A DNA stretch of 64,000 nt from Stegostoma tigrinum (Eukaryota), in assembly GCF_030684315.1 (NCBI RefSeq), contig NC_081364.1, positions 17,654,343-17,718,342 of the forward strand, given 5' to 3'. The first letter of the stretch is position 1. Each line of letters opens with the position of its first letter. Both the position numbers and the translations under genes were made by a program. Positions 1 to 60,893 of the stretch are shown here, in pieces. Under the pieces are notes generated by a model. That model ran no database searches. It saw only the letters and a program-made list of their open reading frames with translations, and was not told where the DNA came from.

Positions 1-197
1 AACTGACAACTAAGGAATAATTTTAAACTAGCATTCCTCGCCAGCCACAGCCTAATGGGCAGAATAGAGAGTAAATTCAGGGCGGGACAGAGCAACAGCG
101 CTTTGACAGAAATCAGACAGCACTGAAGAGGTCACCTAGAAGGGAGACAAAACGTTTGCATGAAAACCAGTCAGCTCGGCGAACCAGCCTACAACTC
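1..197 (+). mobile_element. 3' end of a Penelope-like element (second family) with degenerate hammerhead at 120-159
   Basis: gca-CTGAAGA-g-gtcacc-tagaa-gggagac-AAAACGTT-tgc, then tail aaccagtcagctcggcgaac shared with the GIY-YIG-bearing copy at 60604-60893. Confidence 0.6.
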
Positions 198-491
198 CAG
201 AATTGAGGGCCGTGTGAAGACGCATTTTCTCCAAGAACAGTGAAGAAACGTAAAAGTATTTCTGATCAGCTGTGGTGGAATTAAGGATGATGCTACAGAC
301 ATGACAGTGCTATATTAAAAAAAAGCAACTGCCTTGTTTTACACAAGGAGATAGCCCTCTCAGCTGACAGCTGCACACCAGTTCTAACAGCTGTTGATAT
401 TATTCAGAGCTATGACGAGCCAAATGTCTAAATCTTTCTAGCCTGCATGCATATGGTTTCACCTGATCCGAGACAACATTCCTGCTCTTAC

Positions 492-674
492 CTTATGGAG
501 ATGGCCCTTGGCATCTCCCACGAAGGCGATGGTATGCTCCATTTCCACAGTCACAGCCACCGCTACCAGGCGCCCCTGCGCAACCTTGAGTACGAGAGCT
601 GCCTCTATCGGAATACAGCTGGCCATTGGGCTGGGCGTGTGGTCATAACCACATGGGTATGCATTAAGAGTGTC
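492..674 (-). CDS. PLXNB1: Plexin-B1, second coding exon (Sema domain C-terminal part), 183 nt
   Basis: Acceptor ttgttcctctttgcctggtcttgccatag, donor AAG|GTAAGA. Translates in phase 0 as DTLNAYPCGYDHTPSPMASCIPIEAALVLKVAQGRLVAVAVTVEMEHTIAFVGDAKGHLHK, closely resembling the PLXNB1 segment as I recall it (DTLDAYPCGSDHTPSPMASR...HTIAFLGDSQGQLHR). Not in the ORF track. Confidence 0.92.
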
Positions 675-3600
675 CTATGGCAAGACCAGGCAAAGAGGAA
701 CAAAAACAGAATCAATTACTTAAAGGCTGAACGAGTCAAAAAGTTAAACGCAGTCTGCTTTACAGTGGCTTTTAAGAGCTGACTTGTAAAGAAATGGATT
801 TTCATACTGCATCCATTGCATTGGCTTCCTGCAATGAGTTACCAATGCACGATGCTGTGCATACTTTTATTGCACAATTTCCAGAGTGTCAGGTTCACCT
901 CAATTGAGTAAACGATTTTTGATGACTATAGGCGCCAATTAGAGCAGTGCTATTGAGCATATGTTAAAGTGTGCCAATTACTTTGTGCATTTCTGCACTT
1001 ACCAATTTAAAAGCCTTGCTGATTTCAGGCCAAATCCAGTCTTCAAGGAGACATGCTCAGCTGTTGGCAATGCTAACAATTACAGGAGGCTGTCAGAACA
1101 TGGAATCTTCGGGCTGGTTTAATTACATGGTTTTGCTGTCTTGCCCGAGCGGGGGCTGAACTGCTTCAGCACAAACACTGTACTTATAAATAAATGAAGA
1201 GGCATCAGTTTAAGCAAACATCCAACCATTCACCATTTTTAAAATTCCTAACATAAAGCCTCTCTTCTCCTTTTAGCTCAAAAAAAATCAGTCCTTTTAC
1301 CATCTGCTCCTTTGATCTAATTCCAAGTGCTTCAGTCCATTCCTTTTCTCTTTATAAATTTGGGAAATATTTACTTACACTGGCTTTAATGGCTTGGTTA
1401 ATGCTGCAACGAAGCATTCCTCTCTCATTGTTGACTTGTACCAAGAAAACGATCCCAGGTGAGAGACGGGTCACCAAAAGGCACTCAAGCTGCCGACTCC
1501 TTGCTTCTACAGCAGACCGTGGAACAGGAACTAAGTGTTGCCACTAACCAGGTAATTTGATAAATCTCTGTCCCCTGTTGTGCATGACAAGACAAAGCAA
1601 AAAGGTTCCCCCTACTCCATTAACTAATTCATTAGAGAATCTGGTCAGCAATTCAGACAAGCATCCAGAAGCCAGAAACATGCCAAGAGATCTGGATCAG
1701 TTAAAAACGAGGGAAGGTTAAGCAGCAAAACCAAATGGAACGGCTCATTTGCCCTGCTGCTAAAGAAACTTGATTCACCTTATGGGGGTGTATATATCTG
1801 AACTGCCCCTGTAAAGCTCGATTAATGTCTCTCCAAGCCAGTCTCTTCAGATTTCTACACACGCACGCACACATGCACACACACTCCAGAAGCCCCAAAG
1901 GACTAACTCCTCAAGCCATGTCTTGCTTTCTATCACTCTCGCAATCCAAACTTGGCAACACAGCAGCCATCATTGTTGCTCAGCCTACTCATTACAAGTT
2001 CACATAGTGCTGGTTTATAATCCAATTTGTTAGGTCCATTGACAATGAATGCAACTGACAAAACCACTGTTGCAGGCTTCATTTCACCTCCTAGTCTCTT
2101 TTAAATTGGGCTCATATCCGCTTATAGGTCAGTCAACTTCCATGTATCAGACCAAGAAATCTGGATTCAAGTCCCACCTGCTCCAGAAGTGCATAATAAC
2201 ATCTGAGCGGGTTGATTAGAAAAGTATACTCACATTCAATACACCAAATTGATGGTGCAGAGACTTCCTGGGAGGGAGAATGAAACTACCTTGAGAAATG
2301 ATGTAACATTTCCACCTCAGTGCCAGGACTTGGCTAACTTGGGAGTAGACTGGGGAAGAGGGGTGTGTGGTCATTGGGGGTTAGTGGGAGTGGAGGACAG
2401 TTATCATGCTGGCCGCTCCCCATTCCCTACTCGCCATGACCATGCACTCTAGAGCAAGGCAAGACTGGAAATGCTACTTTATACGCTGCACAAGAAGAAT
2501 GAATTTGATTACCAGTTAACATTTAAGCAAGTTTTGAACTAACAATTTCAGATTTGTGCAACTTTAATGCTTTCTTTGGTCTTAACTTTTGTTCAGTGAC
2601 AGGAATGAGCAGCAATCAGTACACTTCAGAAGTTCTTCCTAGCTGCATGAACACTTGGGGCTGATGAAGAACGCTACACAAATACACTTATCTTTTTAGT
2701 TTTTCCAACGAGCTCCATTTTGGTCTCATGGCCAGGGTGGCTAACCAACGGGGACAGCGTTGGTGGCAATAATGGACAGATAAATCCAGCGTTTTGCTGA
2801 TCCAATTCAGCAGAGGTGACAACCTCAAGGCTACAGGCTATTCAAAACACCACGGATTGGGATAGGCTCGATTAACCTTATGGAGGATTGAGGAGAAAAA
2901 CCAAAATAAAAAACAGCTTTGGTAAACACAGAAAATATGCCCAGTTATTCAGGCTGAGAGTAAAGACGGTAAGAGAAATTTCAGATGGCAGAGGTGATCA
3001 CCTTGTACATGAGGACTGAGTGCCACGGAAGGGAATTTGCAGTCATTGGTGTTCCCATGTATCTGTTGCCCTTGTCCTTCTCAACAGTAGTGGTTGTGGG
3101 TTTGGAAATGCTGCCTTTAATGAACTTTTGCAGTGTAGATGGTACACCCTGCTGTTGCTAAGCATCGGCGAATGGAGGGGGTATTTGTTGATCTGGTGTC
3201 AAACAAGCAGGCAACTGAACACTTGTTAGCCCTGATATTGTACAGGTCTTGCTACATTCGTAGGGGACAGCTTTAGTATCTGAGGAGTTACAAATGGTGC
3301 AATCAGCAGTGAACATCCTTTCTTCTCACCTTAAGGTAGAAGGAAGGTCATTAAGGAAACAATTGAACATGTAGAACCAAAGCAACAAGAAATATTCACC
3401 CTACACACACCACACAATTAGCGCCTCCAACACAAGAGGAACGAACCACGGTCTCTGGACATTCAAAAACATTCCTGTCACTGAATCTCCCACTAACAAC
3501 ATTCTGGGTGTTATCATTGACTAGAAATAAAAATATTCAGGCTAAAACAGGTCAGAGGCTAGATATCCCGTCACAAGTAACTCACATCTTGTCTCCCCAA

Positions 3601-4359
3601 AGCCAGCCCACAAGACACAAGTCAGGAGTTCATTGGAATACTCCCTCCACTTGTTTAGATGAGCACAGCATGATTGGTACCACATCCACAAACATCCATT
3701 CCCTTCACCAATGCTCACTGGCAGCAGTGATTGCAGTTTTGCTAGGGCTCTTTGATGCCACACTCCGTCAGATGCAGCCTGGTGTAAAAGGCTGCCATTC
3801 TCACCTCACCTCTGGAATTCAGCTTTTAGCAGTCTAATACCTATATAAAGAACAATACAATATAATACTCTTTGTCCCATAGTGGAATGTGCACAGGCCG
3901 AGCGGCCTTGTAGTCTGGGACCTGCAAGCACACCCTGTGAGCCCCAGAACACCACAAACAGCGCACAGGGCCTGGTCTTCAAACCCAGAGCAGCGCAGGG
4001 AAGAAACCCTGCAGCAGCACACCGGCAGCGAGCCCTGGGCAGAGACTGGTGTGAGGAAGCAATTCTGCCACCTACTTTAGAGCAGCTAAATGCCAGTATG
4101 GAGCAGAAAGGGGCTTAGAGCGGAACAGGCATGGCTGTTAGACTGGTATCTGCCATGTTCATTCAGGCCATGCATGGAGGCCCTGCACTGAGTCAATTTA
4201 AATATCCTACCTTATTGTAATGATAAACCTTTAATATTTACCAATTTTTAAAAACTTATTTTTCCCCACACGAAATAATGCAAAGACTCTTATTCCTCAG
4301 CTGTATCCAAGAACTTGTACCCAAGATGTTGCCATAAAGGTGGTAGGCATTGTAAAAGT

Positions 4360-4492
4360 TTAAAAACCGAAAGAACTGCGGATGCTGTAAATCAGGAACA
4401 AAAACAAAGTTGCTGGAAAAGCTAAGCAGGTCTGGCAGCATCTGTGGAGGAGAAAATAGAGTTAACGTTTCGGGTCCGGTGACCCTCCCTCA
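4360..4492 (-). mobile_element. Short PLE-derived element (partial hammerhead + tail)
   Basis: Near-identical to the tail of 9037-10136. Reverse complement reads TGAGGG-A-GGGTC-ACCG-GACCC-GAAACGTT-AACTC. Confidence 0.75.
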
Positions 4493-4639
4493 TTGCACTC
4501 CTATAATGATGATAAAAGTACTGTATTGTTTATTATTGGTGCTCACTGTGCCAGATTAGTTAAGCCTGGGTGCAAACACGTTAACAAGGAAAAGAACCAG
4601 AGTCTACAGCTAGGAGCACGGAATAGAATAAAAAACAAC

Positions 4640-4677
<38 letters not shown>
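4640..4677. repeat. (CA)n microsatellite
   Basis: Visible dinucleotide run. Confidence 0.95.
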
Positions 4678-4681
<4 letters not shown>

Positions 4682-5352
4682 CCTGTATCATTTACACATA
4701 GATTGGAAATATAATAAGTGTAAGATTTTTCAGCAACAGAATTGCGGCATGTCTGTAGAAATGCCATTGTACGTCCCATTCAACCTAAAGCAATTTCTGC
4801 ACTCTTTGGAACATTTTACATTTTTGCCCATTTTTCTCTTTAAACAACTAACTGGGAACTGCTTCAGCCAGTAAGTTTAAACTTTCATTCCAAAAGCTAC
4901 ATTTGAAATCATTTTAAACTCCATCCTGAAAATTTCATGCACCTTTGTTGTTCACTCAAAAGTGTCAAGCATATTAAATGATATACAGCTGCACAACAGG
5001 CACATTTAAAAATGTCTTTTAAACTTCCACAATTTCGAGAGTGTCATTACAAAATAGATGGGTTTTATAGAGCTACTGCATCAAAAACAGAGTGCCATTT
5101 CAGTGCCTGTAAATGGGACGCTCTCAAACTTCCCAGACCAAGTTGTTGAAGCAACCGGGATGGATATTTCCTCTTTTAAAACCTCTTTTACACATTTTTA
5201 ACCTCCTTAAAGTGACAGGTCAAGCTACAAATTGGTGGATTTGCTGGCCTGGGCAGAACAGCAATTCCTTTCCTCAAGCAGGTGCGATTACTACAGAACT
5301 TCCTTTATTGATACTGTGAAACATTAATGTTTAGAATTATGAAAAGACTCAC

Positions 5353-6471
5353 TGAAGTTAATCCGCTACAGCTGGATTTGACTTCATACTCGATGTAGGC
5401 TGCCTCACTCTTGTCCTCCATTTTCCCAAAATTGGTGTAACACAGGTCCCTGGTTCGGTTGATCATCTGGTCAATCTGGCTCATCGTGTAAATGCAAAGC
5501 GCTGATTCTTCTGTTGCCTTTGCCGTGGCCGTCTGGCCAACAGCGAAAGTGGCGAACAGGACCTCCCCATTAGTTTTAAGAACGCCCTCGGCCAGGCCCT
5601 TCCCTGGTCGGCTTACATAGGCCGCTTGGAGTAAATTGTAGCTCTTCCCAGCAGTCTGACAAACAAGGGGCACCTCCACGTACGAGTAATAGTGCATGTC
5701 TCCCAAGCAGATCCGCGACACGTAGGTTTTGTATTCCCTGGATGGGGACTTCAGGTCCCTCCGGTAGAACAGGAAATACACGGATAACTGATAAATAAAA
5801 GATTTGACAAAATGGTGGTTGTACTCGGAAAGCCTTCCGGCCACTGCTAATTTAGCCGTGTCCTCGTAGGAGAAAATAGGGTGGGATTCCAGACCCTGTG
5901 GATTTTGTAATTCCAAATTGCGGGTGGTGATCGGCGGGATCCCACCAGCACCTTTGCTGGTATAACCACGGCCCACAAACAGGACGGCCATCTTGCCTTT
6001 GGAGAGGCCAACCAAGCCGACCGTTGTGACATTGGGGTCATTGGCGGCGACGTACTGTGTATCGACCGGGCGCTCTGGACGGAACGAAACCCGGCTGATG
6101 TTTCCCAGACTCCTTTTCTCACAGATCCCCTGAAACAAGCTGCCGCAGGTGATCAGCTCTTTGCCGTAGGGGTTGGTCAGCAGGAGCTTGTTGTGGTTGT
6201 CGGTCATCCTCGCGTGGGGGCAGTCACTGGGGTTGACTGGCGGCAGGCAGTCCTTGCTGTCACTCTGCGGCCCCGTGGGCTGCACAACCAGGTCGGACAG
6301 CTCGGGGGTCAGCTGGAACAGGAAGTTCACGGCTCCGACATACACGTTTCCCGTCTGTGGGTCAACAGTCAGGTGCTCGAACTTCACTCCCGGCCTGCTG
6401 AAGGATTTGTACTGGTCCCCATGGCAGATGCTTAGAAAAACGATGGCAAGGAAGACGTTCCCAGACCGCAT
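5353..6471 (-). CDS. PLXNB1: Plexin-B1, first coding exon (signal peptide + most of the Sema domain), 373 codons
   Basis: ATG at 6471 gives MRSGNVFLAIVFLSICHG (signal-peptide-like), then plexin-B motifs VYVGAVNFLFQL, DNHNKLLL, ITCGSLFQGICEKRSL, YVAANDP, YVSRICLGDMHYYSYVEVPL. Acceptor ...tttttgtcccccaacccccgctgttacag (AG at 6483-6482; exon starts 6481). Donor TCA|GTGAGT at 5352-5351, phase 0. Confidence 0.93.
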
Positions 6472-8131
6472 GATCAACGTGCTGTAACAGCGGGGGTTGG
6501 GGGACAAAAAACAAAAACACAAACAATGCATTATTAACTAGAAAAAGAGGATATCTGGGACTTTCTTTCCCCCCATAATGACAAAGATCTTCAGGCTGGG
6601 GGCTCAACTGGAAAATTTCTAAACTGGAACTAACAATATCCTTGACAGGCAAAGGAAAAACTCCAAGGCAAGGGATCGAGATTGACGTATGGCCCAAAAT
6701 ATAGATCGGCCATGATCTGGTTTGATGGAAAAACAGACTGAAAAAGGCCTGCTAGTGAGGAAGGGGGGATGACATTCTGCCGCTAAATAACAATAGGCAA
6801 ATTATTTCAGAGATGGCAAATGTAATGACACCACCCTTTCATTCAGAAAATAGAACACAATCAAATCACTTTCACAATCACAGGATCCACCCAGAGATCC
6901 ATCTCCAACCTCCATGGCAGAGCCATTCACTCGCCTCTGGAACCTATTCCTCAATCTCCACCATGCCCCTACCTACCAAACACTTTGATACCTTCCCTTT
7001 CTCCAAGAGTGCTGCTGAGTTTCCCCTGCCCAAACTTCTCACTTTCATGCTGAATGCCCTTCCTCCCTTACTTACCTTACCATTGTGCAGAAATTTGCAA
7101 GTATCCTTTTTGACTTAAAACTCTTAAATATATATTATAAGCTGTTGTTGTCAAAGCAATGCTCTGGATTTAGCTTTGATGCTATTCCCTGAGGACCCAC
7201 AATGTTCCCAAGCTAGATAAAGCAAGTTACCCAAAAAAAACAAGGTTACCTCTATTCAGACCTAAAAAAGATAACTTTACCCTGTATTGAGCACACCCTC
7301 TGCCAATACAGACCCTTCATGATTGACAAATCCTAGCTGAAACTTGCAATTCTCCCAGCTTCAGCTACAGTCGCACACTGAACATGAAGAGGAAACTCAC
7401 CCTGACTCTTGTAATAAAGGGTTGCCAAGCCTCCAGCATTTTCTTAAAATCTCCAGGAATTCAAAATTCACCTCCTGAACAACGCGGTGAGCAACACAGA
7501 AGAAAGCAGCAAGCGTCATTTGTTAAACGGGCACATGCCTGAAACTTTTCAGTAGGATTCTGCCCTGGAACTTGCTAGGGATGGTTATTCATAAACAATA
7601 CCTCGACTTGGAAATAGTGACTAATGCAAATACATTCAAACTTAAAACATAAGTATTTGCAAGCTTATTTTCAGTGCCAGAGAGGTTATTCACGAGTAGA
7701 CTTATCACATCAGTTTGGAAAAAAAAATCTGTTACTGTGAAATGGGCAAGTCCTGAGTTTCTCTGGCAAGTTTATGAGGTATTCTGTAAACACAGCAACT
7801 GCACACTATTCAATGTCATTGCATGCCGAGACCCCGAGCATGATCTTATAGTGAGCAGCCTCTGGAGGAGTAGGACAACACATTTAGTGTCTTTTTGGCT
7901 CCTGCTATTAGCTGGGCCTGTGTGGTTGCCCAAAGTTGTTGACACAATCTACAATAACAGAGAATGTTGATAGGTTCTTCGTACTGGCTGTAAAATATGA
8001 CCCATTATCAATTTTTTAAAATTGCATGTTTAATTTCCTCGATCCCTTTTGTTTATTACTTGCAAACATATTAGGGAAGGGGGTTGGGAGTAGCAGGTTC
8101 CTGAAAACATTCAAGAACACACCTAACCAGA

Positions 8132-8333
8132 TAAAAATCTGAAAGAACTACGGATGCCGAAAATCAGAAACAAAAATAGAGAGATTACTAGAAAAGCTCA
8201 GCAGGTCTGGCAGCATCCGTTCTGAGGGTCCAGTTCTGAGGAAGGGCCACCTGGCCTGAAACGTTAACTCTGATTTCTCTCTACAGATGCTGCCAGTCCT
8301 ACTGAGTTTTCCAGCAATCTCAATTTTTGTTAT
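8132..8333. mobile_element. Miniature inverted PLE-derived element with hammerhead motif (8232-8269, +)
   Basis: 13-bp TSD ACACCTAACCAGA at 8119-8131 and 8334-8346. Two opposed copies of the PLE tail. AGTT-CTGAGGA-A-stem II-GAAACGTT-AACT. Confidence 0.8.
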
Positions 8334-8404
8334 ACACCTAACCAGAGTCAGCTACTCTTAAAATAACAGGCACTCCACTTGCTCCATGCACTGCTGTCAA
8401 ATTT

Positions 8405-8709
8405 CATAGAATTACAGAATCCAGTGTGAAAGCAGGTCATTTGGCCCATCAAGCATACACTGACTCTCTGAAGAGCATCCCACACAGACCCACCACTCAT
8501 TCCTATGAACTCTCCTATCCCTGTATATCTTTAAAACACTATGGGGTAATTAAGCTAGACCAATCCACCTAACTGCACATCTTTGGACTGCAGGAGGAAA
8601 CTGGAGCACCCAGAGGAAACTCATGCAGTCATGGGGAGAATGAGGATGGAATTGAACCTGGGTCACTGGCACTATGGGCAGCAATACTAACGCCAAGCCA
8701 CCGTGCCAC
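8405..8709 (-). mobile_element. HE1-like tRNA-derived SINE
   Basis: tRNA-like head (rc ggcacggtggcttggcgttag...ggttcaattcc), central cagtccaaagatgtgcagttag domain, CR1-like tail; multiple copies in the window. Confidence 0.75.
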
Positions 8710-9036
8710 TTCTAACTGTTCTTAAACAGAACAGTAAACGGGAAAATAAACAGTAAAAGGCAGATTTGTGACATAAAACTTGTTCCCCTAAACCAGCAGT
8801 TACTGCAACTGGCAGCCAGTTCTGTTAGACATCCATGCTATAGACAGCAGTCAACAGGGGGAAGACCCATCTGTCTTACTTGTCCTATGCCTACAAGATT
8901 AAAGTGTGCACATTTAAATCAGGCAAGTCTCAGATTTAAATTGTGCTTTTCACAACCTCCACACCTCCAACAGCATTTCACTGACTCAGCATTGCTGTGA
9001 TGCAGGAAAAGGTGGCAGCCAAATGGAATGTCACAA

Positions 9037-10136
9037 GCAAATAAAAACCGAAAGAACTGTGGATGCTGTAAATCAGGAACAAAAACAAAAGTTGCTCAAA
9101 AAGCTCAGCAGGTCTGGCAGCATCTGTGGAGGAGAAACCAGAGTTAACGTTTCGGGTCCGGTGAGCCTTCCGCAGAACTGATGGTGGCTGGGAAAGCATC
9201 AGTTTATATGCAGAAAGTAAGGAGATGGGTGGGGTAGGGAGTAAATGATAGGATAGAGCCCAAAGAGAGAGAAAGGCAGTCGCACAGTCAAAGGAGTTGC
9301 TAACGATCAGGCTGGGAGGGTGAATAGTTGTTAATGGGGACTGTCAGTGGCCAACAATAGGGAGTGTGTAATGGCAGGCTATGTGGCAACAAGGCCTGGT
9401 GTGTGGGGTTGGGGGCTGGGACATGGGGGAGTTTAGACCTTAAAATTATCGAACTCAATATTGAGTCCGGAGGGCTGTAGGGTCCTCAGGTGGAAAATGA
9501 GGTGCTGTTCCTCCAGCTTGCGTTGGGCTTCACTGGAACATTGCAACAAGCCAGAGACAAAGAAATTGGCCAAGGAGCAGGATGGTACATTGAAGTGACA
9601 GGCAACAAATAGTTCAAGATCTTTTCTGCGAGCAGAACGTAGATGTTCTATGAAGTGGTCACCAAGTCTACACTTCGTTTCCCCAACGTACAGGAGACCA
9701 CATTGCGAGCAGCAAATGCAGTGGACTGGATTCTGGCAAGTGCAGGTGGTGTTGCTTCCCCTAGATGATGTTTCAGCCTTTCGATGCTGGGGAGGGAGGA
9801 GGTAAGTGGGCAGGTGCTGCACCTTCGCCGGTTACAGGGAAAGGTGCCGTGGGGCTGTCAGGAGGCGTTGGGGGTGAAGGATGTGTGGATCAGGGTGTCC
9901 TGGAGGGAACGGTCCCTGCAGGAGGAGGACAAAGGAGGGGAAGGGAATGTCTTTGTCTGGTGATGGCATCTCACTGGAGGTGGTGGAAAACGGTGTCTGT
10001 TGATCTTCTGAATGTGGATGCTGGTGGGAGAGTAGGTGAGGATAAGGGGAACCCGGTCACTGTTGCCGGAGGGAAGAGAAGAGGTGAGGGCGGAAGTGCG
10101 GGAGATAGGTCAGACCTGGTTGAGGGCCCTGTCGAC
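9037..10136 (-). mobile_element. 5'-truncated Penelope-like retroelement with GIY-YIG endonuclease remnant and hammerhead (9142-9179)
   Basis: ORF 9433-9822 has HCICCSQCGLLYVGETKCRLGDHFIEH...HF...EEQHLIFHLRTLQPSGLN (PLE GIY-YIG). 15-bp TSD AATGGAAT(G/A)TCACAA at 9022-9036 and 10137-10151. Confidence 0.88.
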
Positions 10137-12949
10137 AATGGAATATCACAACCGTCAAGAGCATCAGAAAGGTTTCACGAACACCAAGCGATCACAGCCA
10201 GGTAATCTGTGTTAGCTGTTGGCTAAGGAAAACAAAATGGCCAAGATTACATAACTTTTCCACATTAGACTGCCATTGGATCCTTTACGTTATTCTGCAC
10301 CTAAAGTCAAATCAAGAGATGGCCACAGGTGAGCAAAAGCAGACTCAAACTTTCTTACTTTTCAGAAATTGACTCCTCTGTGGGATGTGGGTACTGCCGT
10401 AGTGAGGTCAGCACTTATTCATACCTAATTAGGGAGGGAGCGATGAGCTGCCTCCTTGAACTACTGCAGTCCATGTGATGTGAGGACATCCACAGTGCTG
10501 TGTGAACAACAAAAATGGCTACAGCTGTTGGACAAGGTCATCTGAGTGAACCTGTTTGATGCCTACTATAATGGTGATAGCTACTCTGTGTTGTATGAGA
10601 AAAAACAGGGAACATCACAGTGGTTACATGAAAAGGTCTGGTAATCCAAAAGGTCTGGATGAATAACTCAGAGAATGAAAGCTTAAATTAGGGCCACTTG
10701 AGAATGTTTTGAGGCCATCTTGAAACTAGAAAGTTCATAATGGCCGTGAAACTGTCCCTTTCGTGAAAGGAGCCTGTCATCTTCCTGTCTGAATTGTACC
10801 TAACACCAGTCCAAAGTCAACGTCATTGCTGTATTCAAGAAATTTATACAGCACATTTTACACACTATCTTCCACTTAGAATTTATGGAATTCAAAATTC
10901 AACTTGTTTTCGCACACAATGTTGCACCCTTGGGTTCATCAATGATGATATCTTAATGTTTAGACCACACATTTTGTGTAAAGCACACAGAGCAAGGACA
11001 AAACATTTCATGTTGAAAATGTCAGAAAGTGCAAGAGAAATAAACTTTTCTCGATACCCCTCTCCGAGGTGCCTCATTACAATGTCCAGCGTCTATATTC
11101 CTTTTGAGGAACACAGCCAAGGTGTCCCTTAGTGTACCACTGCTGTTAGCCCAGAAACAGCATCTGTGCCCTAGTGTGCACCTCTGTGGAGCTGCTTCTA
11201 GCTTCAGTACATCCCTTAACATGTAATCCGGGACGTTTCCACATGCCAGTTTGCAACACTCAGTTGATGACAACATTTCGCATCGAAGACCCACTGTCTT
11301 CTGGAATGGCCTAGAAAACAACCCAGCTAAGGTTAAATATCAGGATCAGCTATTAAAACTGATCTTACTAGCGTCATTCATATCCAAAAGAGTAAACATA
11401 TTAAAAAAGTCAACAAGCACATCTCTAACAGTTAGACACTGGGTCCGTGAGGCTACTACTACATTTTGCATTTTAATTCCTTTGTTCTGTAGTGGGACGA
11501 GGCAGAACAGATCTGCTTCTCTGAAGCTAATCTCTCACCCAGAGACAATTCAGATAAGATGGGGACAGAAGCATTGGTGACTTTTAAAAGCTGTCTAGCT
11601 CAAAGCTGAACCTGCAGTAAGCTTCGATGGTGCTCAAAGGACAGCAGTTTTATAATTGTTATTTAGTTTCCACCACAGGTAACTGCATGGCTAAGATTCT
11701 GTGACAATACTGTATTGCAGGGCCAACCCTCTTCAAAAGAAGAGTGCCAGAATTAAAAACTTGCAAGGCATTTTACACAGAAGAACCTGATATTTTGTAC
11801 AAACACAGCAACATGCAGGTGGCATATGGCAGCAACAAGGATGCCACACAATATACTCAGTCAGAGAATTGCTGATCACTGATGAACACATATGCTCACC
11901 TCCATCTCCACAGCTCCAGCATCACGGTGTCTAAGTCAGGAAGCCAGCAAGTTGCTAAGTTACGGATGATCAGCAAGGTCAAAGGCCGACAGCTGTGAAT
12001 GACTCACTCATTCACAATGTGACCAACCTGATCCTACACAACAAGGAATGCAGAGCTTAATTAGCTTCCTAAACCACAAAAGCAAGTAAGTCTCAGAAAG
12101 AAAATCTTCAGCAGAGAAAAAAAGAGCTGAAAGACCTGTAAACTGGGTCACCTTCAAAGCATGAGTCTGAAGTCATAAGAATAAGGCAAGAGGCATGCAA
12201 GCCAAAACAGAACCTGCAATAAAAGAATAGACAAGTTCAAAATTGCCTCTCTCATATTATGCAATTGATCCCCCAAGGAAACCCTTGTGGATTTTTTTAA
12301 ACATGCATTTATCTTGCTGCTTTAAAAAGATGCAAGTGTGTTTTTTTGTGAGAATCAATAAGAAACTGACGGCCCTTCAGATTCACAAAACCACTATCTG
12401 CACTAATACATTCAGGTGGAACGCACATTCTCCAGATGCCATTAGGGCAGTTCACAAAAAGCTATGCTCCTGTTACAGTAGCTGCTCGGGGCACGCGTTC
12501 TCCAGACACAAGCCACTTACAACCCAAATGTGCACTTACTGCAACTTGTTGTGTACTTTGCAGCCAACAGAAGGGGTTTCAGCAAAAAAAACCAAGTCAG
12601 TAAGCGTTTATTCTAGAGATAATAGGAACTGCAGATGCCAGAGAATCCTCAAACTTTGCCTTGCCTTGCAAATGCACATGCCCCGTGGTAGAATAGCTCA
12701 AAGCATCCACCTAAGTAGGCAGGTCACAGAAATCTCAACAGCTTGTCTGTCAGGACTACCTTCAACATACAGTCTTGTCCTAAAGCAACGTTATCAAACA
12801 AAACCTGATAGTGAGCCACACAGAAAGATATTGGGTCAGATGTGCAATATCCTGCAGTAAGGTCAGCTTTTAATGAACATTACAAGGGAGGAAAGAGGTG
12901 GGGAGGGAGGACAGGGGATTTCCAGAGTTTACAGCAGAGTTCAGCCAAT

Positions 12950-13437
12950 AGCATATATTCAGCAGGAGATGGATATAGGAAGGATCCTACTAAATTGGAG
13001 AAAATATTTAGAAGGATATTATTGGGAATGGAGGGTTTGAGTTGTAAGGGGAGGTTGGATAGCCGGGACATTTTTTGGGGTGATCTCATATAGGGGTTTA
13101 TAACATCATGAGGGGCATAGGTGAGCTGAATAGCAAGCGTCTTTCCCCTAAGGCAGGAGAGTTCAAAACGAGCAGGCATATTTTTAAGGTGAGAGGATTT
13201 AGAAAGGACCTGAGGGGCAACTTTTTGACATCGAAGGTGGTTTTATGTGGAATGAACTGCTGGAGGAAGTGGTAGATGCAGGTACAGTTACAACATCTAA
13301 AAGACAGGTACATGAATAGATTGGGAGAGATATGGGCCAAATGCAAATAAAAGGGAATAGTTTAGTTTGGGAAACTTGGTCAGCATGGACTGGTTGGACC
13401 AAAGGGTCTGTTTTCGTGCTGCATGACTGACTCTATA
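12950..13437 (+). mobile_element. CR1/HER1-type LINE 3' fragment
   Basis: Decayed RT C-terminus (LEKIFRRILLGMEGLSCKGRLD) and typical 3'UTR ending gggtctgttttcgtgctgcatgact. Confidence 0.75.
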
Positions 13438-13904
13438 ACGGCAGGAGTGAAAGCTTCTTAGAGCTTTGCAGGGCCGGAGAAGATTACAGAGATGGTGACA
13501 CAGAGACAGGTATGAGAGAATTCAGTCAGGGTCTGTCTTGTAACACAGAATCTGGAGCTGGTTCCTTCGAAGTAGAAGTTCACATGAGCTATGCAGGCTG
13601 AGCTTGGAACTCGAAGACTCAGTGAGGATTCCAAGTGTTGCAGCAGTCATCTCTCCCCACTGGACCTTCCTTTCAGATCTATCTCACGTCGACACTCGAT
13701 GGGAATCTCAATGTGCTTACTAACTAGTGACCTGAAAATCCGACTTGAGGAGCAAAAAAAAAATGGAACGACTGCTATCTCTGAGCGACTGCAACCCTCC
13801 CCAAAGTTCAGACATCTCGTGGAAGGCAGGGCACTTTGAATGACAAGATCGATGGAAGCACTCATTGAGGTTCAAGCAAACACTATATCCATTTCTCCAC
13901 AGGG

Positions 13905-15083
13905 ATTAGTGATGGAGACTCAATTGCTTACAATCAATGTGAAAAACTTGGATAAAGGGACCAAATGTGAAATTACAAAATTGCGGGAGACACAGAGATG
14001 GATGCAAGAAAAGTCATGCAGAGGGCACAAGGAGTTTGCAAACAGGGATATCGTTAAGTAAGGGGCAAAGTTTGGAAACTGCAATGTAACGTGAGAAGAT
14101 GTGAACTTGTCCACTGCAGCAATAAATATCTAAAAGCAGCATATTATTTGAATGCAGACACAGAAGAGCTCTGAGGGACAGAGTAATCAGTGTTCCGATA
14201 CATGAATTACAAAATGTTAGGATGCAAGTACAAATGATTAGAAAAACAAATGTAATGTTGTTTCTTGCAAGGCAAATAGAATATAACAGTAGGGAAGGTT
14301 TGTCACAGCTGCACAGAGCATTGGTCACAGCTACAGTGTAACAAGAGCTTGATAACTTAGAGCTCATTGGACTGGAAGCTTGTCACTGAATGGGTACAGT
14401 ACACGTCACAGTTAGTCTGCAATTGATTAAAGTGTCTAAGAATGCAGTGTGCTCAATTGAGATACGTTGTATTTTATTGCATTTTCCGTAATGACTAGTT
14501 TGAAATGTTCTGGAATGTACCTTTTACCACTCTAGTAACAATATATATTTTTGCAAAAGTGTTTTTTAAAAATTGGTTAGAGGATATCTGCGATACTGTG
14601 CATGGTTTTTAAGGAAGTGCGGAAAAGACTGGAAGTCTGAGGTACATCTTGACAGGACAGTTTGGACTGTATCCATCGAGGTTTGAAAGGTGATCTTATT
14701 TTGATAAAAAATACTACGAGACTTGACAGGATGGGTGTTGAAAGGATGCTTTCCTTGTGGGAGAGACTCGAGCTTGAGGTCATTTTAAAAATGTGGTGTC
14801 CCATTTAAAGGTAGTGATGTGGTGAATTTATTTCCCTCAAGAGGCCGATAGTCTACAGAATTGTCTTGCCGAGACGGGAGGACGGGATCATTGGATTTTT
14901 TTTTAAAAAGGTGGATTTTAAAGTCTTGACTGACAAAGGAGCCAAAGACTATGAGCAGCATGCTGGAAAGTAGAAGTCACAATCGAGATTAATATCTTTG
15001 AACAGGTTGGTAAGAAAGCATCTTCAATCCAACAAACCAGGATCTTATCGATTTACAGAGCAGGCTCAAGGGACCAAATGGCT
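13905..15083 (+). mobile_element. Old CR1-type LINE fragments
   Basis: Decayed RT motifs (NLDKGTKCEITK; W...Q..FN..KC) and CR1 3' end caggctcaagggaccaaatggc. Confidence 0.6.
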
Positions 15084-44739: not shown

Positions 44740-46025
44740 GGTAGCACTGTGGCTCAGTGGTTAGCTTTGAGGCAGCAGTGCATTAGGGATCAGGGTTCAA
44801 TTCCACCCTCAGTCGACTGTGTGCACACTCCACATTCTCCCCGTGACTCCAGGAGCTCTGGTTTACTCGCCAGTCCAAAGGTATATAGCTTAGGTGGATT
44901 AGCCGTGCTAGATTGCCCCATTAGTGTTCAAGAATAATAAAATGTGAGGCTGGATGAACACAGCAGGCCAAGCAGCATCTCAGGAGCACAAAAGCTGACG
45001 TTTCGGGCCTAGACCCTTCATCAGAGAGGGGGATGGGGTGAGGGAACTGGAATAAATAGGGAGAGAGGGGGAGGCGGACCGAAGATGGAGAGTAAAGAAG
45101 ATAGGTGGAGAGGGTGTAGGTGGGGAGTTAGGGAGGGGATAGGTCAGTCCAGGGAAGACGGACAGGTCAAGGAGGTGGGATGAGGTTAGTAGGTAGCTGG
45201 GGGTGCGGCTTGGGGTGGGAGGAAGGGATGGGTGAGAGGAAGAACCGGTTAGGGAGGCAGAGACAGGTTGGACTGGTTTTGGGATGCAGTGGGTGGGGGG
45301 GGGGGGGGGGGGGGGAAAGAGCTGGGCTGGTTGTGTGGTGCAGTGGGGGGAGGGGATGCACTGGGCTGGTTTAGGGATGCAGTAGGGGAAGGGGAGATTT
45401 TGAAACTGGTGAAGTCCACATTGATACCATATGGCTGCAGGGTTCCCAGGCGGAATATGAGTTGCTGTTCCTGCAACCTTCGGGTGGCATCATTGTGGCA
45501 GTGCAGGAGGCCCATGATGGACATGTCATCAAGAGAATGGGAGGGGGAGTGGAAATGGTTTGCGACTGGGAGGTGCAGTTGTTTGTTGCGAACTGAGCGG
45601 AGGTGTTCTGCAAAGCGGTCCCCAAGCCTCCGCTTGGTTTCCCCAATGTAGAGGAAGCCGCACCGGGTTTTATTATCTCTCTCCACCTATCTTCTTTTCT
45701 CTCCATCTTCGGTCCGCCTCCCCCTCTCTCCCTATTTATTCCAGAACCCTCACCCCATCCCCCTCTCTGATGAAGGGTCTAGGCCCGAAACGTCAGCTTT
45801 TGTGCTCCTGAGATGCTGCTTGGCCTGCTGTGTTCATCCAGCCTCACATTTTATTATCTTGGAATCTCCAGCATCTGCAGTTCCCATTATCTCAGTGTTC
45901 AAGGATATGTAGGTTAGGTGCATTAGCCACGGGAAATGTAAGGTTACAAGGATGGGGGTATTGGTCTGGGTGGGATGTTCTTCAGACAGTCAGTGTGGCC
46001 TGCTTCCAGACTGTTAGAATTCCAT
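44740..46025 (+). mobile_element. HE1-like SINE split by the Penelope insertion
   Basis: Head gtggctcagtggttagc at ~44750; body resumes after the TSD at 45904 and ends cagactgttagaattcca. Confidence 0.75.
44933..45893. mobile_element. Young Penelope-like insertion with asymmetric inverted arms (44934-45667 minus; ~45679-45893 plus); hammerheads at 44995-45026 (-) and 45765-45796 (+)
   Basis: ORF 45249-45686 contains CGFLYIGETKRRLGDRFAEH (GIY-YIG). TSD AGTGTTCAAG at 44923-44932 and 45894-45903. Nearly identical to the 24052 element. Confidence 0.92.
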
Positions 46026-46867: not shown

Positions 46868-47223
46868 AGTCATACAGAATCCCAACAGTGTGGGAAACAG
46901 GCCAATCAGCCCAACATGTCTGAATCAAATCCCCCACCAGTATCCCATCTAGGCTACCATCCCACCTCATACCCCATCCCTGTGACCCTGCAGTTCCCAT
47001 GGCCAACCCACCGAGCTTGCACATCTCTAGACACTATGGCCTAACCACGTAACGTGCACATCTTTGGGCTGCAGGAGGAAACCTGGACTACTTGGAGGAA
47101 ATCCACACAGGCAGGGGAAGAACTAGTAAACTCCACACAGACAGTTGCCCAAGGCTGGAATCGAACCCAGGATGTCCCTGGCACTGCTGGAGGTAGCAGC
47201 GCCAGCCACTAAGCCACCATACC
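46868..47223 (-). mobile_element. HE1-like SINE
   Basis: Full-length homology to the other copies. Confidence 0.78.
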
Positions 47224-49342
47224 AGCCAGGGAAATGCTGTGCAAAGTAAAAAGCAACCCCAGTAGAGATCAATACCCTGACAGAATCTGTCCTGCTTACC
47301 AGGAGCTAGCACCATTATTGGCAGCACATGTAACAATAATCAGAGCTGACACTTCAGTAATCTCAAACACTAGATGTTACCGTGGTTAGATTAAACCCCC
47401 ACATTGTTTAAATGAAGCTCACATTGAGAGCCAGTGTAACGAGTCAAAACCTCAGAAGAACGAACACAAAGTACTCAAGATAGAATGAAGATAAACCCTT
47501 TCTACCAGGAAAGAAAGGATGGCCACAGAACACTGAGCTAGAAAGCAAAAACCAACATCCCCTGAAAAGTCTGAATAGATTTGCAAATTGGAGAGATGGG
47601 GATTTCCGCACCTTTAATCCAAACAAAAAAAGCTTCTTGCCAGAACATACGATTCTGAAGTGTTACACTGATCTCAAACTCCTGCACAGCATATAGTCTG
47701 ATTTATTCTCCTTTTGTTATTAATACCTCCAATTATAGTGCAAGCCAGTCATTCAGATGGTAAAACACTGCTATGTTAGGCTCAGAACTACTTCAGTTGC
47801 TTTCTGAAGTCAAACAAAGAGCTGTAGCCAGAAGATAGACATCTAACATGAACCATAAGGATGTGGACATTTAATAAAAACATCGCCCTTCTGAAAGGGA
47901 CTCAGCTGTGTGGAATAGAAATGATGTTTGCACCTTGGCAAATGTAGCGACTACCAGGACACAGTTTAACCAGTCAGTCAGTCACAGCAATCCAAGATGG
48001 ATTCATCAATTAACAAACACACTTCATGTACTCAGACTGTGATGCACAGCTGTATCACCAGATTGCCAGGCAGGATATCCGCAATGTGTAGGCTCAAGGG
48101 GATCTCCTTTCATTTTCCACAGGGCTCTTAAGACTTCATTCCCCAGGGCCCACATTCCCATTGCTGACACTTGCTGCATATGAGACTATTATGGGGATTA
48201 ATAACACAAGTGTCATTGATCCCTTGCAAAGTGCTGTTATGTATACAGCCACGCTCTAGGCAAATATCAAGTATTTGAAATATTTGGCGTGGTGAGGTGG
48301 GGGGGGGTGGGAAGAGGAAAGCAGAGACACAGGTTAGGGTTAACCCTTTAACTGCTTAGGATACTTCCAGATATGAGAAGATAAATATGACTCCAATGTA
48401 CCACTTGGATTAAATCTGCACTCAGACAGCCAGGCGATGAGACCTCTCTCTGCTGTTGGCACGTGGACATAAAGTGTTTGCTCTTGATTTTCTGGGCGAG
48501 TACACTATTGGTATTTTGTGAAAGTCATGCTTCCTGTGAGAGAGAACAGGTCAGTCTCAACCTCAGGAAAGCCTGGATTCGGAGAATATGCAGGTGATAG
48601 TGACCACTTCAGCCAGGAGGGAGAAAGTGAATGTTCTAGTTTTAGGATGATCGATGGGTGATAATCAGCCTTGGGGGAGGTTGTTCTTCCTCACCAAAGG
48701 TATTGCCTAGGCCATGACATGAACCTTCTCAGATATCACTGCCTGTTCTCATTAACCACTGACATTAAACAGAGGGTGCTTCAACAGTACAAAGATCATT
48801 CAGACTAATCCAAGCTGAACTGAAACAGAGATCAAAGTGGGGAAAAAGAGTCTCATTTCCAATGGTGGCCGCTCTCAATTAACTTAGGCATCTTAAATAA
48901 GAGACAATAGCAAACGATATCTCCTCTGGCTCCTTTCTAGTTCAAGAGGATCGAACTTAATGTTGCACTATCAGCATTTTTTTAAAAAACGTGCCACGAA
49001 TAGGAGAAGACAAATTTCCGCCAACTTCTAAGCTGTCCCCTTGTTGGTTTATTTCACCTGACCTGGTGCCATTCTCTGTGAGTGAATATTTGAGTAAGTG
49101 TAATAATGACCACTCCCCCCACCCCCCCCCACCCCCCCATCACCCCGTTCAGTCAGTGCAATCCAATTGGGTACCTTGGACAATGTAAATGTCTCATTGT
49201 CATGATCAACACCTTGTAGTTTCTTTGTCTGTCTTGTAGTTGTCTTTAGTGCCTTTACTGTCATCACAAAAAAAGTCCCAGGATTTTGAGCTGCAACATG
49301 TGACACTGTGCACAGGAAGAGATAATTGCATATTCTGATCTG

Positions 49343-49642
49343 GAATCACAGAATCCCTACAGTGTGGAAACAGGCCCTTCTGCCCAACAAGTCCACACCG
49401 ACCGCCAGAACATCCTTCCCAGACCCATCCCCCTAAATCTACACAACCCAGAACACTACGGGCAATTTAATATGACCAATCCATACGGCCTACACATCTT
49501 TGGACTGTGGGAGGAAACTGGAGCACCCAGAGGAAACCCATGCAGACTCAGAGAACGTGCAAATTCGACACAGACACAGTCACCCGAGGGTAGAATTGAA
49601 CCCGGGTCCCCGGCACTACAAGGCAGCAGTGCTAACCACTGA
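49343..49642 (-). mobile_element. HE1-like SINE
   Basis: gaatccctacagtgtggaaacaggccc...aggcagcagtgctaaccactga. Confidence 0.8.
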
Positions 49643-55400: not shown

Positions 55401-55775
55401 CATCAGCTCACCCCAAGATTCCCAGCAATCCTTAAATAAAACTGGTCTTCAACATGCCTGGGAGTAGCCAGCAAGCAAGTGCAACCTGCCATCAAGTGGA
55501 CTAGATTCCAAGCCGAAAGTCTGGGAAAATCTGAAACCCGGCAGTGTCTCAGTCCCAAAAAAGGTCTGAATTTTGGATATCAGAACTGAATAGTGCAGTT
55601 TTCACAACAACATTGTTAATATTTCATCCAATAAACTCAGTCGTTTACCTCAATGCTGATCGCAGCACTGTGTTGTACACAGATTGACTGCTACTTTTAA
55701 TACTTCTGAAACATTGCAGGCTGTGAAGTGATCGCAACATCCCGGAGGTTATTAAAGACATCAAATAAACAAAAG

Positions 55776-55870
55776 TGATAATGGGAACTGCAGATGCTGG
55801 AGAATCCAAGATAACAGTGTGAAGCTGGATGAACACAGCAGGTCCAGCAGCATCTCAGGAGCACAAAAGC
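55776..55870 (-). mobile_element. PLE tail fragment stopping at about the hammerhead cleavage site
   Basis: gataatgggaactgcagatgctggagaatccaagataa...caggagcacaaaagc is the rc of the tail at 25312-25409. Confidence 0.75.
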
Positions 55871-56661: not shown

Positions 56662-57003
56662 GGGCAACGTGGTGGCTCAGTGTTTAGCACTACTGTCTCG
56701 CAGCACAGGGTCCCGGGTTGGATTCCACCCTCAAGCAACCGAGTGGAGTTTGCACGTTCTCCCTGTGTATGCACAGGCTCTCTCTGGGTTCTCTAGTTTC
56801 CTCCCACAGTCCAAGAGGCGTCCAGGTTAGGTGCCAGGTTGGCCATGCTAAACTGCCCCATACTGTGCAGGCTGGATGGATTAGCCATGGGAAATTTAGA
56901 GTTACAGGGACACGGGTGGGTCTAGGAGGGATGCTCTTCAGCGGGATAACATGAACCCGATGGGCTGAACGACTTGCTCCCACACTCAAAGGCATTTTAT
57001 GGA
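56662..57003 (+). mobile_element. HE1-like SINE
   Basis: ggcaacgtggtggctcagtgtttagcactactg head and conserved body. Confidence 0.75.
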
Positions 57004-57650
57004 AACATGCTCAACAATCAGTGGCAAACTAAAATGCGCAAAAGATCAGTGCAGTCAAATCAGAGAGCTGTGGAATTGAGGTGAATTGAGTGATACTGGG
57101 GTAAAAAGGCAATGTAATAGGATTGGAAAACAAAGACTAATCACTTTAAATTGGAGGTTTTGGTCAGGCAGGGCAATGCAGTTCAGCGAGTGCAGGGGTG
57201 ACAGATCAATGGGACTTGGTGCTTGTTTGGAGTTCTTCATTACGTCAAATTAATGAAGGGTATAAAAATAGGAGCCCAGCCAGAAAAGCCTTGGTACAGT
57301 GAAGCTTAGAGGTAACAAAAGGTAAGGATTAGGCCCATTGTTTTTAGTGAGGTTGCTTGTGGATAGATTGATTTGAAACAGCAAAGACCCATTTAATTGC
57401 TTGAAGGAAGAGCTCAGCATTTCACAGCATGGGAGGAAGAGACCCCTGCCGCAGGACAATGCTTCTCACTAGGACTGAAATCAAATGGATTTGCAAATCA
57501 ACCCCTTTCAATGTTTTTACTAGTGTTCTGCAAACCTCCACACATTCCCTGCTTGGAACTTCAGTCTTTAATGTAGGCAATTTTTGTTTAAAAAAAATTT
57601 AGAAAAGTTAGGCATTCCACTGTTACACCATATCCACCAAATATGCTAAC

Positions 57651-58611: not shown

Positions 58612-58742
58612 CACAGCCTGAAGAAAATATCTGAAACATCGATTGCTCCTTTCCTCCAGGTGCTGCCTGGATTGCTGTGTTCTTCCAGCCTCCTGTTTGT
58701 CTACTTTGGGTTCCAGCATCTGCAGATTTTTTTTTGTCTCTA
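58612..58742 (+). mobile_element. Short PLE-derived element with degenerate hammerhead
   Basis: CTGAAGA-aaatatct-GAAACATC, then ggtgctgcctggattgctgtgttcttccagc...ccagcatctgcagattttt. Confidence 0.62.

Positions 58743-59351: not shown

Positions 59352-59399
<48 letters not shown>
59352..59399. repeat. Poly-G run (48 nt)
   Basis: Direct count. Confidence 0.95.
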
Positions 59400-59400: not shown

Positions 59401-60136
59401 AAGAGGAGGAGATGATGAGAGAAAAGGGGCAGAGAAACCAAAGCGCCTTCATAATATCACCCTAGTTTGCTCCTGCTGCAGCTCAGCTGCTGCTGAAACT
59501 CTCAGTTCCTCTAGTCTGGGGTCTTGGCTGGTCTCCTACATTCTCCCTTCCATGGATTGTCAGATGATTATCCAAAATACAGCTGCCTATGTCTTAACTT
59601 TTCAACACAGCCCATGCCCCAACTCCTCCTGTTTGGGTGACCTGTGACTCCAGCTCAAACAACATTTCTATTTTAACGCTACCATCTCAAATCTGCTCAT
59701 GGATTTATCTGATGATTGGGTATGTAAAGAACAGAACTGGACAAAAGTAGCTGCAGGAGAACTATGGGAGGAGGATAACGTGGCCCACCATAACAAAGGC
59801 TAAACACTGGTTGAGGGATGAGTAGGACAGATGGTTACTCTCAGAGTTATGTGGACTGTCTTTAACGTCAGATGGACAGCACATCATGGGGTGGGGAATG
59901 CAAGCTCTGGCAGCCTAGATGGGTTACTGGTGAGGGTTGGCATCAAAATGGTAGGGTGATACATCAAATGTTTTCCCACTGACGTGAAGACGCCATCTAC
60001 ACTTGTTGCTGCCAAAGACAGCCAACATCAAAAACGCCTCTCAACCTATTAATAATCTCTTCCAACCTCCTCCATCAGGCAGAAAATACAAAAGCTTAAA
60101 ACACACATACCAACAGGTTCAAGAACAGCTTCTTCC

Positions 60137-60573
60137 AAAACATAAGAATATAGAACAACACAACACAGTACAGGCCCTTCGGCCCATGATGCTGTGTTAA
60201 AAGCTCTTATTCTAATCCTAAAGTCTATCTAACCTCCAGCCCTACCTTATACTATCATCCATGTATATACAGTCACCGCTTAAATGCCCCTAACGAGGCT
60301 GACTCCAATACTCTCTGGCAATGCATTCCACAGCCCTACCACTGAGTAAAGAACCTACCTCTGACATCTCCCCTATATCTACTTCCACTCACTTTAAAAC
60401 TGTGACCCCTCGTAATAGCTACCTTCACTCTATCCATACCTCTGATCATTTTGTACATCTCTAGTCACCTCTCATCCTTTGTCATTCTAAAGAGAAAAAC
60501 CCTAGCTCACTCAACCCTCTCGTAAGACCCTCCCTGCATTCCAGGCAACATCCTGGTAAATCTAATCTGCATT
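60137..60573 (-). mobile_element. CR1-type 3' fragment nested in Rex1/Babar
   Basis: TSD TTCTTCC at 60130-60136 and 60574-60580; rc CR1 3'UTR. Confidence 0.72.
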
Positions 60574-60603
60574 TTCTTCCCTGCTGTTATTAGATTTCCG
60601 AAT

Positions 60604-60893
60604 GAGATTGATGATTTGCTCGCCGAGCTGGCTGGTTACTGTACAGGCATTTCATTACCATGCTAGGTCACATTATGCAGCCTCTATTGAAGTGATGTTG
60701 TTCTACTCTGTAGAGTATTTATATGATCCAGTCTGTTGATGTGTTTCACGTCATTTCATGTATGTTTTTGCAAGGGTTTGTATATAACGTCTAATCCCAC
60801 ATGTTTGCAATGATTGCATTATGGATAGAGAATCAGGTCTCTAGGAATTCCTGTGGATGTCTATGGTTGGCTTGGGTGAGGATGGTCATGTTG
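60604..60893 (-). mobile_element. Penelope-like fragment (second family) with GIY-YIG C-terminal remnant
   Basis: rc reads NMTILTQANHRHPQEFLE; tail ccagccagctcggcgagc shared with 1-197; decayed hammerhead at ~60632-60675. Confidence 0.6.

Follow-up and report, generated by a model that had tools for sequence, protein, structure and literature searches.

Hammerhead ribozyme motifs around the plexin-B1 locus of Stegostoma tigrinum as probable passengers of Penelope-like elements

Background

Do hammerhead ribozyme motifs that lie within and upstream of a plexin gene act on the transcript of that gene, or were they brought there by something else? The question is raised by a stretch of 64,000 nucleotides of Stegostoma tigrinum (contig NC_081364.1, positions 17,654,343 to 17,718,342; hereafter the window), where a sequence-only reading had listed minimal hammerheads at thirteen sites as a dispersed set belonging to one plexin locus, PLXNB1, and had proposed that the sense copies could pair via ACGT in an intron and cut the pre-mRNA. 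We find it very probable that these motifs are passenger copies of a minimal hammerhead carried in the pseudo-long terminal repeats (pLTRs) of three families of endonuclease-containing (EN+) Penelope-like elements (PLEs), and that the ribozyme acts, if at all, on element RNA and not on the plexin transcript. The motif class is already known from PLEs and, since the plexin angle fails, no new gene-regulatory ribozyme is proposed at this locus. What the hammerhead does for PLEs is still regarded as unclear (PMC8557442), and insertion proceeded without it in the one reconstituted system (PMC11167929); for these and the other papers cited, our statements refer to the portions covered. The tens of thousands of young copies present in this genome let the question of cleavage be approached by counting junctions.

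Results

Intact cores and the insertions that carry them

The sequences described were present at all of the thirteen sites. The type-I core (CUGANGA / GAAA / UH) is satisfied by five of them and failed by the other eight, and the five cores previously counted as intact are exactly those returned by a strict descriptor requiring a pairing stem II, compared with 0.01 on average, and never more than 1, in 200 dinucleotide shuffles of the window. The predicted cut positions given for two of them (25310 on the plus strand, 24115 on the minus strand) were also correct. The stem I sequences assigned to the set (AGTT/AACT or GCA/TGC) do not describe four of the five, which have instead a 2-bp stem I (CT/AG). 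These four are the arms of two inverted insertions with target-site duplications (TSDs) on either side, and the motif is a genome-wide repeat, so that the notion of a set belonging to one plexin locus had to be abandoned.

The insertion at 24 kb (Table 1) carries its 14-bp TSD at 24038-24051 and 25410-25423, its arms are 96-99% complementary in self-comparison, and EN-fragment frames lie at 24352-24804 on the minus and 24606-25058 on the plus strand; the insertion at 45 kb is 95-98% identical to it and gives a weak GIY-YIG match (E=0.063). Positions 24052-25373 form a 1.3-kb near-perfect palindrome with a 7-nt spacer and 97% identity, situated in a probable intron, from which a long double-stranded RNA (dsRNA; editing or silencing substrate) is predicted and a cruciform is possible. 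Two Rfam microRNA matches at 24657-24753 are artefacts of this palindrome.

A genome-wide repeat with full-length copies elsewhere

Genomic copies and junctions were counted by sequence-pattern matching. The youngest 30-nt motif has 90,316 exact matches (45,079 + 45,237) in the 3.2-Gb genome, and its reversed control has 0. The window holds 4 exact motifs, arriving as pairs, against 1.8 expected per 64 kb (P=0.11), and the 284 kb around it hold 11 against 8.0 expected; the plexin locus is therefore not enriched, and its copies occur at about the genome-average density.

The tail sequence gave 970 genomic matches, and following these led to full-length copies. At three loci (L117, L118 and L119) two same-orientation ribozymes, respectively 3,564, 3,471 and 3,556 nt apart, flank one open reading frame (ORF), giving for family F1 the layout pLTR(hammerhead)-ORF-pLTR(hammerhead), in which the ORF encodes reverse transcriptase (RT), a Cys linker and GIY-YIG. 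The 675-aa frame of L119 matches RVT_1 (E=4e-6) and GIY-YIG (E=7e-4), both under the Pfam curated cut-offs, possesses the motifs YIDD and LYIGET, and has between the two domains the linker CNRRKCYTC (CX4CX2C), which agrees with the CX2-5CxxC form of the Neptune/Nematis clade. Hammerheads in both pLTRs were seen for F1 at these three loci; F2 and F3 are known here from adjacent EN fragments. The 5' truncation, inverted pLTR, tail and TSD of EN+ PLEs are all present, and 17 of 30 long-tail loci (L037-L066) have an opposite-strand copy. At 8 of these 30 loci there are short tandem units in which two ribozymes of the same orientation are separated by 186-1,111 nt, and at 3 of them both cores are intact.

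Two side observations concern the same elements. The F1 ORF at L117:2027-3580 has a long Thr/Ala/Pro-rich low-complexity insert N-terminal to RT, and several long-tail loci (L044, L047, L059 and others among L037-L066) hold ribozymes 300-600 nt apart in tandem, natural dimer candidates unlike the plexin copies.

Three ribozyme families and their fold

In a loose search of 733 kb three ribozyme families were recognized: F1, with the copies at 24 and 45 kb and the related motifs at 15144 and 58617; F2, with 4459, 8232, 9142 and 43372; and F3, with 120 and 60632. All three have a palindromic ACGU stem III without loop III, as in the Penelope-type minimal type-I hammerhead under which the motifs had been classed, and the extra nucleotide between A9 and 10.1, also part of that description, was confirmed. 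The Rfam 15 scan returned no hammerhead family among its 9 matches at E<=10, and the Hammerhead_1 search that had been suggested would therefore miss these motifs.

To evaluate covariation we aligned 22 hand-picked copies, 20 of them chosen from a list requiring a pairing stem II, plus two window sites. The alignment pairs in 85.5% of its cells, compared with at most 46% in slid controls; at G10.1-C11.1, 15 of the 22 rows have G-C and the other 7 have G-U, and 8 of the 11 pairs change on both sides between families (4/4 helix-I and 4/5 helix-II pairs), the outer helix-I pairs holding in half of the rows only. The covariation across the family alignment that had been named as a check is thus present. 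Since its signal comes from about three lineages, it shows selection on the source elements and not on the window copies.

Could the copies cut the plexin pre-mRNA?

The identification of the gene was borne out: the exon at 5353-6481 encodes a plexin N-terminus with E=2e-108 to plexin-B1 versus 4e-48 to plexin-A1, and a splice acceptor lies 10 nt ahead of its ATG. One contig of a related organism (run X1, presumed RNA) stops at 6482 and continues with 463 extra letters that have no listed match in positions 1-20000, and a second covers 490-673 only; these contigs fit a spliced mRNA with one or more upstream non-coding exons. The claim that the region is PLXNB1 intron stands in part, because a spliced 5' untranslated region upstream of 6481 in the related organism, in a run presumed to be RNA, would make at least part of it intronic; the intron likely spans the 24-kb and 45-kb insertions. 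The search of the window for CpG islands found none besides the coding exon.

Only two intact cores are sense to plexin (24113-24144 and 44995-45026), they lie 20.9 kb apart, and in each insertion the opposite, complementary arm is transcribed first. All folding here is equilibrium prediction. Partition-function folding placed every base of both motifs within the long hairpin (probability 1.0) and gave local ribozyme pairing of 0.0, with -65.6 kcal/mol for the arm duplex versus -4.5 for the double-hammerhead dimer; two free monomers favour an inactive duplex of -37.2 kcal/mol through the near-palindromic stem II, and the ACGU duplex is worth about -3 kcal/mol. The third sense candidate, at 9142, has a core change and is predicted to be 89% paired to the copy at 8232. 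Long hairpins are predicted to hold both of the sense intact copies in the host pre-mRNA and to keep them from folding as ribozymes, and the proposed pairing via ACGT to cut that RNA is not supported. From the exon to 251 kb upstream there are 7 intact cores on the minus and 8 on the plus strand, numbers too small to give power for strand bias, and the two constructs proposed for cleavage tests (25270-25409 and 8225-8333) are both antisense to plexin. A plexin-specific role for the motifs has no support. If host transcripts are affected, the long intronic dsRNA predicted from the young inverted insertions would be a more plausible cause than cleavage.

5' junctions at the predicted cut site

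Were element RNA cut, its reverse transcripts should run off at the first base past the cut (+1); on this rationale the 5' junctions of F1 copies were counted. Tallies made by eye may err by a row or two, and the rows listed are the first in genome order, hence non-random. Three mismatches just before +1 are found in 3,008 F1 copies and just before +2 in 390. Among the first 100 '+1' matches listed there are, by eye, 64 AGCT-centred palindromes (+1..+4), 10 local hairpin fold-backs and 26 other flanks, of which about 9 are single-base indels in intact copies. Since palindromes and fold-backs dominate, the non-fold-back excess over +2 is small (about 510 versus 350).

Perfect palindromic junctions occur genome-wide at 566 loci for AGCT, at 31 for ACGT (-5..-2) and at 21 for GGCC (+28..+31). 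On contig C1, where control palindromes were scored with CpG decay permitted, 43 were seen by eye at AGCT versus 9 at the upstream CTAG and 9 at the stem-II GGCC (P=2e-6 for 43 versus 9). Six AGCT loci were inspected; their tails are unequal and at least 5 of the 6 have a TSD-like repeat, therefore they look like primary insertions. When F1 junctions from -8 to +13 were tallied by eye (first 100 matches listed of 8,176), 11 fell over -8..-1, 31 at +1 (23 palindromic rows from 16 loci and 8 others) and 58 over +2..+13, so that the density rises at the scissile bond from 1.4 rows per position to 4.8. An earlier F1 tally by eye, whose filter excluded AGCT-centred palindromes, had given no +1 peak in the 100 matches listed (5 rows versus about 3.3 per position). 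For F3, which has no palindrome past the cut, 9 rows representing 7 loci fall at +1 versus about 3.2 per position (P=0.045; by eye, among 100 listed of 243), in a tally that left out internal deletions and shifted intact copies and whose filter excludes ACGT-centred palindromes.

Starts at -28..-33, just before the core, are far commoner than at +1: 10 of 29 sampled motif-bearing F1 copies (L001-L030, contig C1) begin there, as does the full-length L117, the decayed motif at 20925-20995 of the window belonging with them, and we infer a transcription start or an RT stop at these positions. The sequence resembles what we take to be a polypyrimidine (TCT-type) initiator. F1 5' ends range continuously from -28 to beyond -1,500, where they reach into the ORF. 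At the other end of the element, L001-L030 favour two F1 3' ends, situated at about +60 and about +95 relative to the cut, each of which terminates in ATTATC.

Whether the +1 surplus records cleavage of element RNA in vivo is about evenly balanced. We advance only tentatively, as a view somewhat short of that balance, that the genome preserves, in statistical form, a fossil trace of germ-line cutting by a Penelope hammerhead, in which the cut would be seen in about a tenth as many insertions as start at ~-33, and reverse transcripts reaching the 5'-OH end would carry its initial AGCT, by which two cDNAs could anneal into at least 566 perfect, TSD-flanked palindromes. In the literature titles and abstract starts searched, neither shark PLE hammerheads nor a genomic junction excess at the cut site was found.

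Weighing the explanations

In the explanation that we hold very probable, element RNA would mostly begin about 5 nt upstream of the core, as suggested by the third of the sampled copies that start just before it, and this would place the ribozyme at the RNA 5' end. With an element protein or a tandem partner, the ribozyme would clip a minority of the element RNA molecules; reverse transcription would then run off at the cut and might, with chances near even, leave the surplus of copies that start at the scissile bond. Most genomic copies are 5'-truncated, often doubled head to head, and the window copies are such stubs. That sense copies instead dimerise via ACGU in the PLXNB1 intron, cut the pre-mRNA and affect the host gene seems to us extremely improbable: two intact cores do lie on the plexin strand, the related-organism contig spliced at the 6482 acceptor makes the upstream DNA probably intronic, and conserved intronic hammerheads exist in amniotes (PMC6155905), but both sense cores are predicted to be fully paired to their own antisense arm, their distance, 2-bp stem I and faint ACGU duplex disfavour a dimer, there is neither local enrichment nor an uneven upstream strand split, the copies belong to a 90,000-copy family and sit in young insertions with TSDs, and a related Anolis ribozyme requires the element protein (PMC11167929). 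It is also quite unlikely that the short copies are an independent self-propagating retrozyme or short interspersed nuclear element (SINE) family and not truncated full-length PLEs. Many are 100-300 nt long and lack an ORF, short same-orientation tandems exist, and animal retrozymes are reported as pLTR-derived (10.64898/2026.07.22.740005); however, the 5' ends form a continuum into the ORF, the short tandem junctions mostly vary by locus, and the intact F1 copies of the window are joined to GIY-YIG fragments or pLTR sequence.

The serious alternative is that in these families the ribozyme never cuts in vivo and that the +1 surplus is due to microhomology (AGCT palindrome, AGC/GCT hairpin), to a pause of RT at the base of the fold, or to a minor start site; we would give it slightly less than an even chance. 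Several results weigh on its side and against reading cleavage into the junctions. The 64 palindromic and 10 fold-back rows, 74 of the first 100 '+1' matches listed, have local self-complementarity, so microhomology contributes; about 28 more C1 loci join at a 12-nt stem-II near-palindrome, a class nearly as common; non-palindromic junctions number 10 at +8 and 13 at +10 versus 8 at +1 in the first 100 matches listed of 8,176; and the F3 surplus among the 100 listed of 243 is about two-fold, ties with +8 and shows no step. The covariation rows were hand-picked, with 20/22 pre-selected for a pairing stem II and about three independent lineages, and even in element RNA the predicted minimum (-37.2 kcal/mol) lies well below the double-hammerhead fold (-4.5). 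Outside this genome, the passages covered report for Anolis no RNA-seq ends at the site and in vitro insertion independent of cleavage (PMC11167929), and Naiad PLEs thrive without hammerheads (PMC8557442). Microhomology alone would, however, not lead one to expect that equivalent nearby 4-base palindromes yield far fewer perfect junctions (31 and 21 versus 566; on C1, 9 and 9 versus 43), that junction density steps up at the scissile bond, or that F3, which lacks a palindrome there, is joint-highest at +1 among the 100 rows listed, two of its loci being blunt palindromes with their start at +1; moreover, the conserved core and the stem covariation imply selection on the fold. The palindrome controls weaken, but do not overturn, the claim that AGCT alone accounts for the junctions, and the counts favour, though they do not prove, that element RNA is occasionally cut. 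If true, this would be population-scale in vivo evidence of activity for a ribozyme class whose in vitro cleavage is weak or protein-dependent.

Other features of the window

The coordinates of the motifs, of the insertions that hold them and of the plexin exon are collected in Table 1. The EN label of the frame in the F2 element at 9 kb is based on its likeness to the F1 frame, Pfam giving no GIY-YIG match for it.

Table 1. Hammerhead motifs, Penelope-like insertions and plexin exon in the window
Feature	Position	Strand	Remarks
F3 hammerhead	120-159	+	G12>A; 6-bp stem II, 3-bp stem I; antisense to PLXNB1
F2 stub	4361-4492 (motif 4459-4492)	-	truncated inside core, C3 gone; in intron after first coding exon
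First coding exon of plexin-B1 orthologue	5353-6481	-	ATG at 6471; acceptor AG ends at 6482
F2 fold-back mini-insertion	8119-8346		older family; 13-bp TSD; holds core 8236-8265
Intact hammerhead core, F2	8236-8265	+	antisense to PLXNB1; 4-bp stem I; GUU triplet
F2 5'-truncated element	9035-9831	-	decayed GIY-YIG-like frame 9433-9831, pLTR, hammerhead 9142-9179 with A6>C, tail
Older F1-related stub	15085-15178 (motif 15144-15174)	-	G16.2>A, so ACGT lost
Decayed fold-back stub	20820-21046 (motif 20925-20995)	both	centre just 5' of ribozyme core; no intact core
Young F1 inverted insertion	24038-25423		two 5'-truncated head-to-head arms (GIY-YIG C-terminal fragment + pLTR + tail)
Intact minimal hammerhead, F1	24113-24144 (core 24115-24142)	-	sense to PLXNB1; 2-bp stem I
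Intact minimal hammerhead, F1	25281-25312 (core 25283-25310)	+	antisense to PLXNB1
F2 decayed stub	43289-43413 (motif 43372-43413)	-	A9>G and broken stem II
Second F1 inverted insertion	44923-45903		long minus arm with GIY-YIG fragment, short plus arm; 10-bp TSD
Intact minimal hammerhead, F1	44995-45026 (core 44997-45024)	-	sense to PLXNB1
Intact minimal hammerhead, F1	45765-45796 (core 45767-45794)	+	antisense to PLXNB1
F1 solo tail without ribozyme core	55774-55870	-	starts at +2 (one base past predicted cut); 7-bp TSD-like repeat; absent from the sequence-only reading
Decayed F1-related stub	58617-58725 (motif 58617-58640)	+	stem II absent
F3-like remnant	60632-60675	-	no CTGANGA; recognisable only via family flanks

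Two exons lie about 251 kb and about 266 kb upstream of the plexin exon (L084:7357-8145, minus strand, and L086:2573-4153, plus strand), which we take to be CCDC51-like and BRPF-like, respectively; in Pfam the former gave a weak Dynamitin match only. No further gene-like frame was seen between these exons and plexin, which suggests a very long plexin 5' region. An 850-bp microsatellite with a 12-nt period is found at L069:7155-8124.

The window also contains repeats unrelated to the ribozymes, presumably SINE-like or resembling the 3' ends of long interspersed nuclear elements, at 8398-8640, 19926-20258, 23094-23200, 28683-28975, 47045-47210, 49336-49642 and 56677-57016, with further ones at 16352-16699, 18599-18946 and 39391-39726, and at 13090-13430, 38535-41064 and 61968-62263. 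A run of 48 G occupies 59352-59399.

Comparison with known systems

Cleavage by dimers of such ribozymes has reportedly been described by Lunse et al., as cited in a review (PMC6765202). PLE hammerhead monomers were found inactive and dimers weakly active (PMC4209133), and of nine Xenopus dimer elements one was active in a 2026 preprint that sampled one chondrichthyan (10.64898/2026.07.22.740005). The motifs described here resemble the metazoan PLE minimal hammerheads of Cervera and De la Pena 2014 (PMC4209133) in the type-I core, the missing loop III, the palindromic 15.2-16.2, the extra base between 9 and 10.1, G10.1-C11.1, the pLTR location, the several families per genome, and the prevalence of dispersed single copies together with opposite-strand pairs 100-700 bp apart. 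They differ in number, with at least 90,316 copies of one exact motif versus about 4,000 in coelacanth and 9,000 in Xenopus when counted with the descriptor of that study, and in helix I, which has 2 bp in the main family here, as in D. virilis, versus 4-5 bp in Schistosoma families; cartilaginous fishes are not named in the portion of that paper covered.

Amniote domesticated hammerheads (RECK and others, PMC6155905) are likewise type-I hammerheads in host-gene introns. Those of the RECK type are conserved across animal classes at one locus, whereas the copies here are minimal, young and very numerous, and most of them are either broken or predicted to be trapped in hairpins; the 95-98% identity between the insertions and their intact TSDs indicate a youth that argues against domestication of this type, and in the host transcript neither of the two sense intact copies is predicted to fold as a ribozyme (local pairing probability 0.0).

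The closest likeness in element structure is to the Neptune/Nematis EN+ PLEs (Craig et al. 2021, PMC8557442; Arkhipova et al. 2013, PMC3846280), which share the order of RT, Cys-rich linker and GIY-YIG, the partial tandems, the head-to-head inverted copies with palindromic junctions, an optional tail of 30-40 bp and TSDs of 7-14 bp. This likeness comes from domain order and linker, and junction positions relative to the ribozyme are absent from the passages of the two papers considered. Poseidon PAc of Anolis carolinensis (Frangieh et al. 2024, PMC11167929) also has its hammerhead at the pLTR-ORF junction and two alternative 3' ends that define a tail, its two RT start sites being paralleled by the F1 3' ends at about +60/+95; by analogy, extension of both strands as in PAc could explain the inverted pairs. 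The PAc ORF starts inside the ribozyme, whereas here the frame of the core ATG comes to a stop after 13 codons, and the long frame has its start downstream of the cut. Finally, PAc was not cleaved without the element protein and, in the passages covered, showed no RNA-seq ends at the cut site, whereas the present genome holds a surplus of DNA junctions exactly there.

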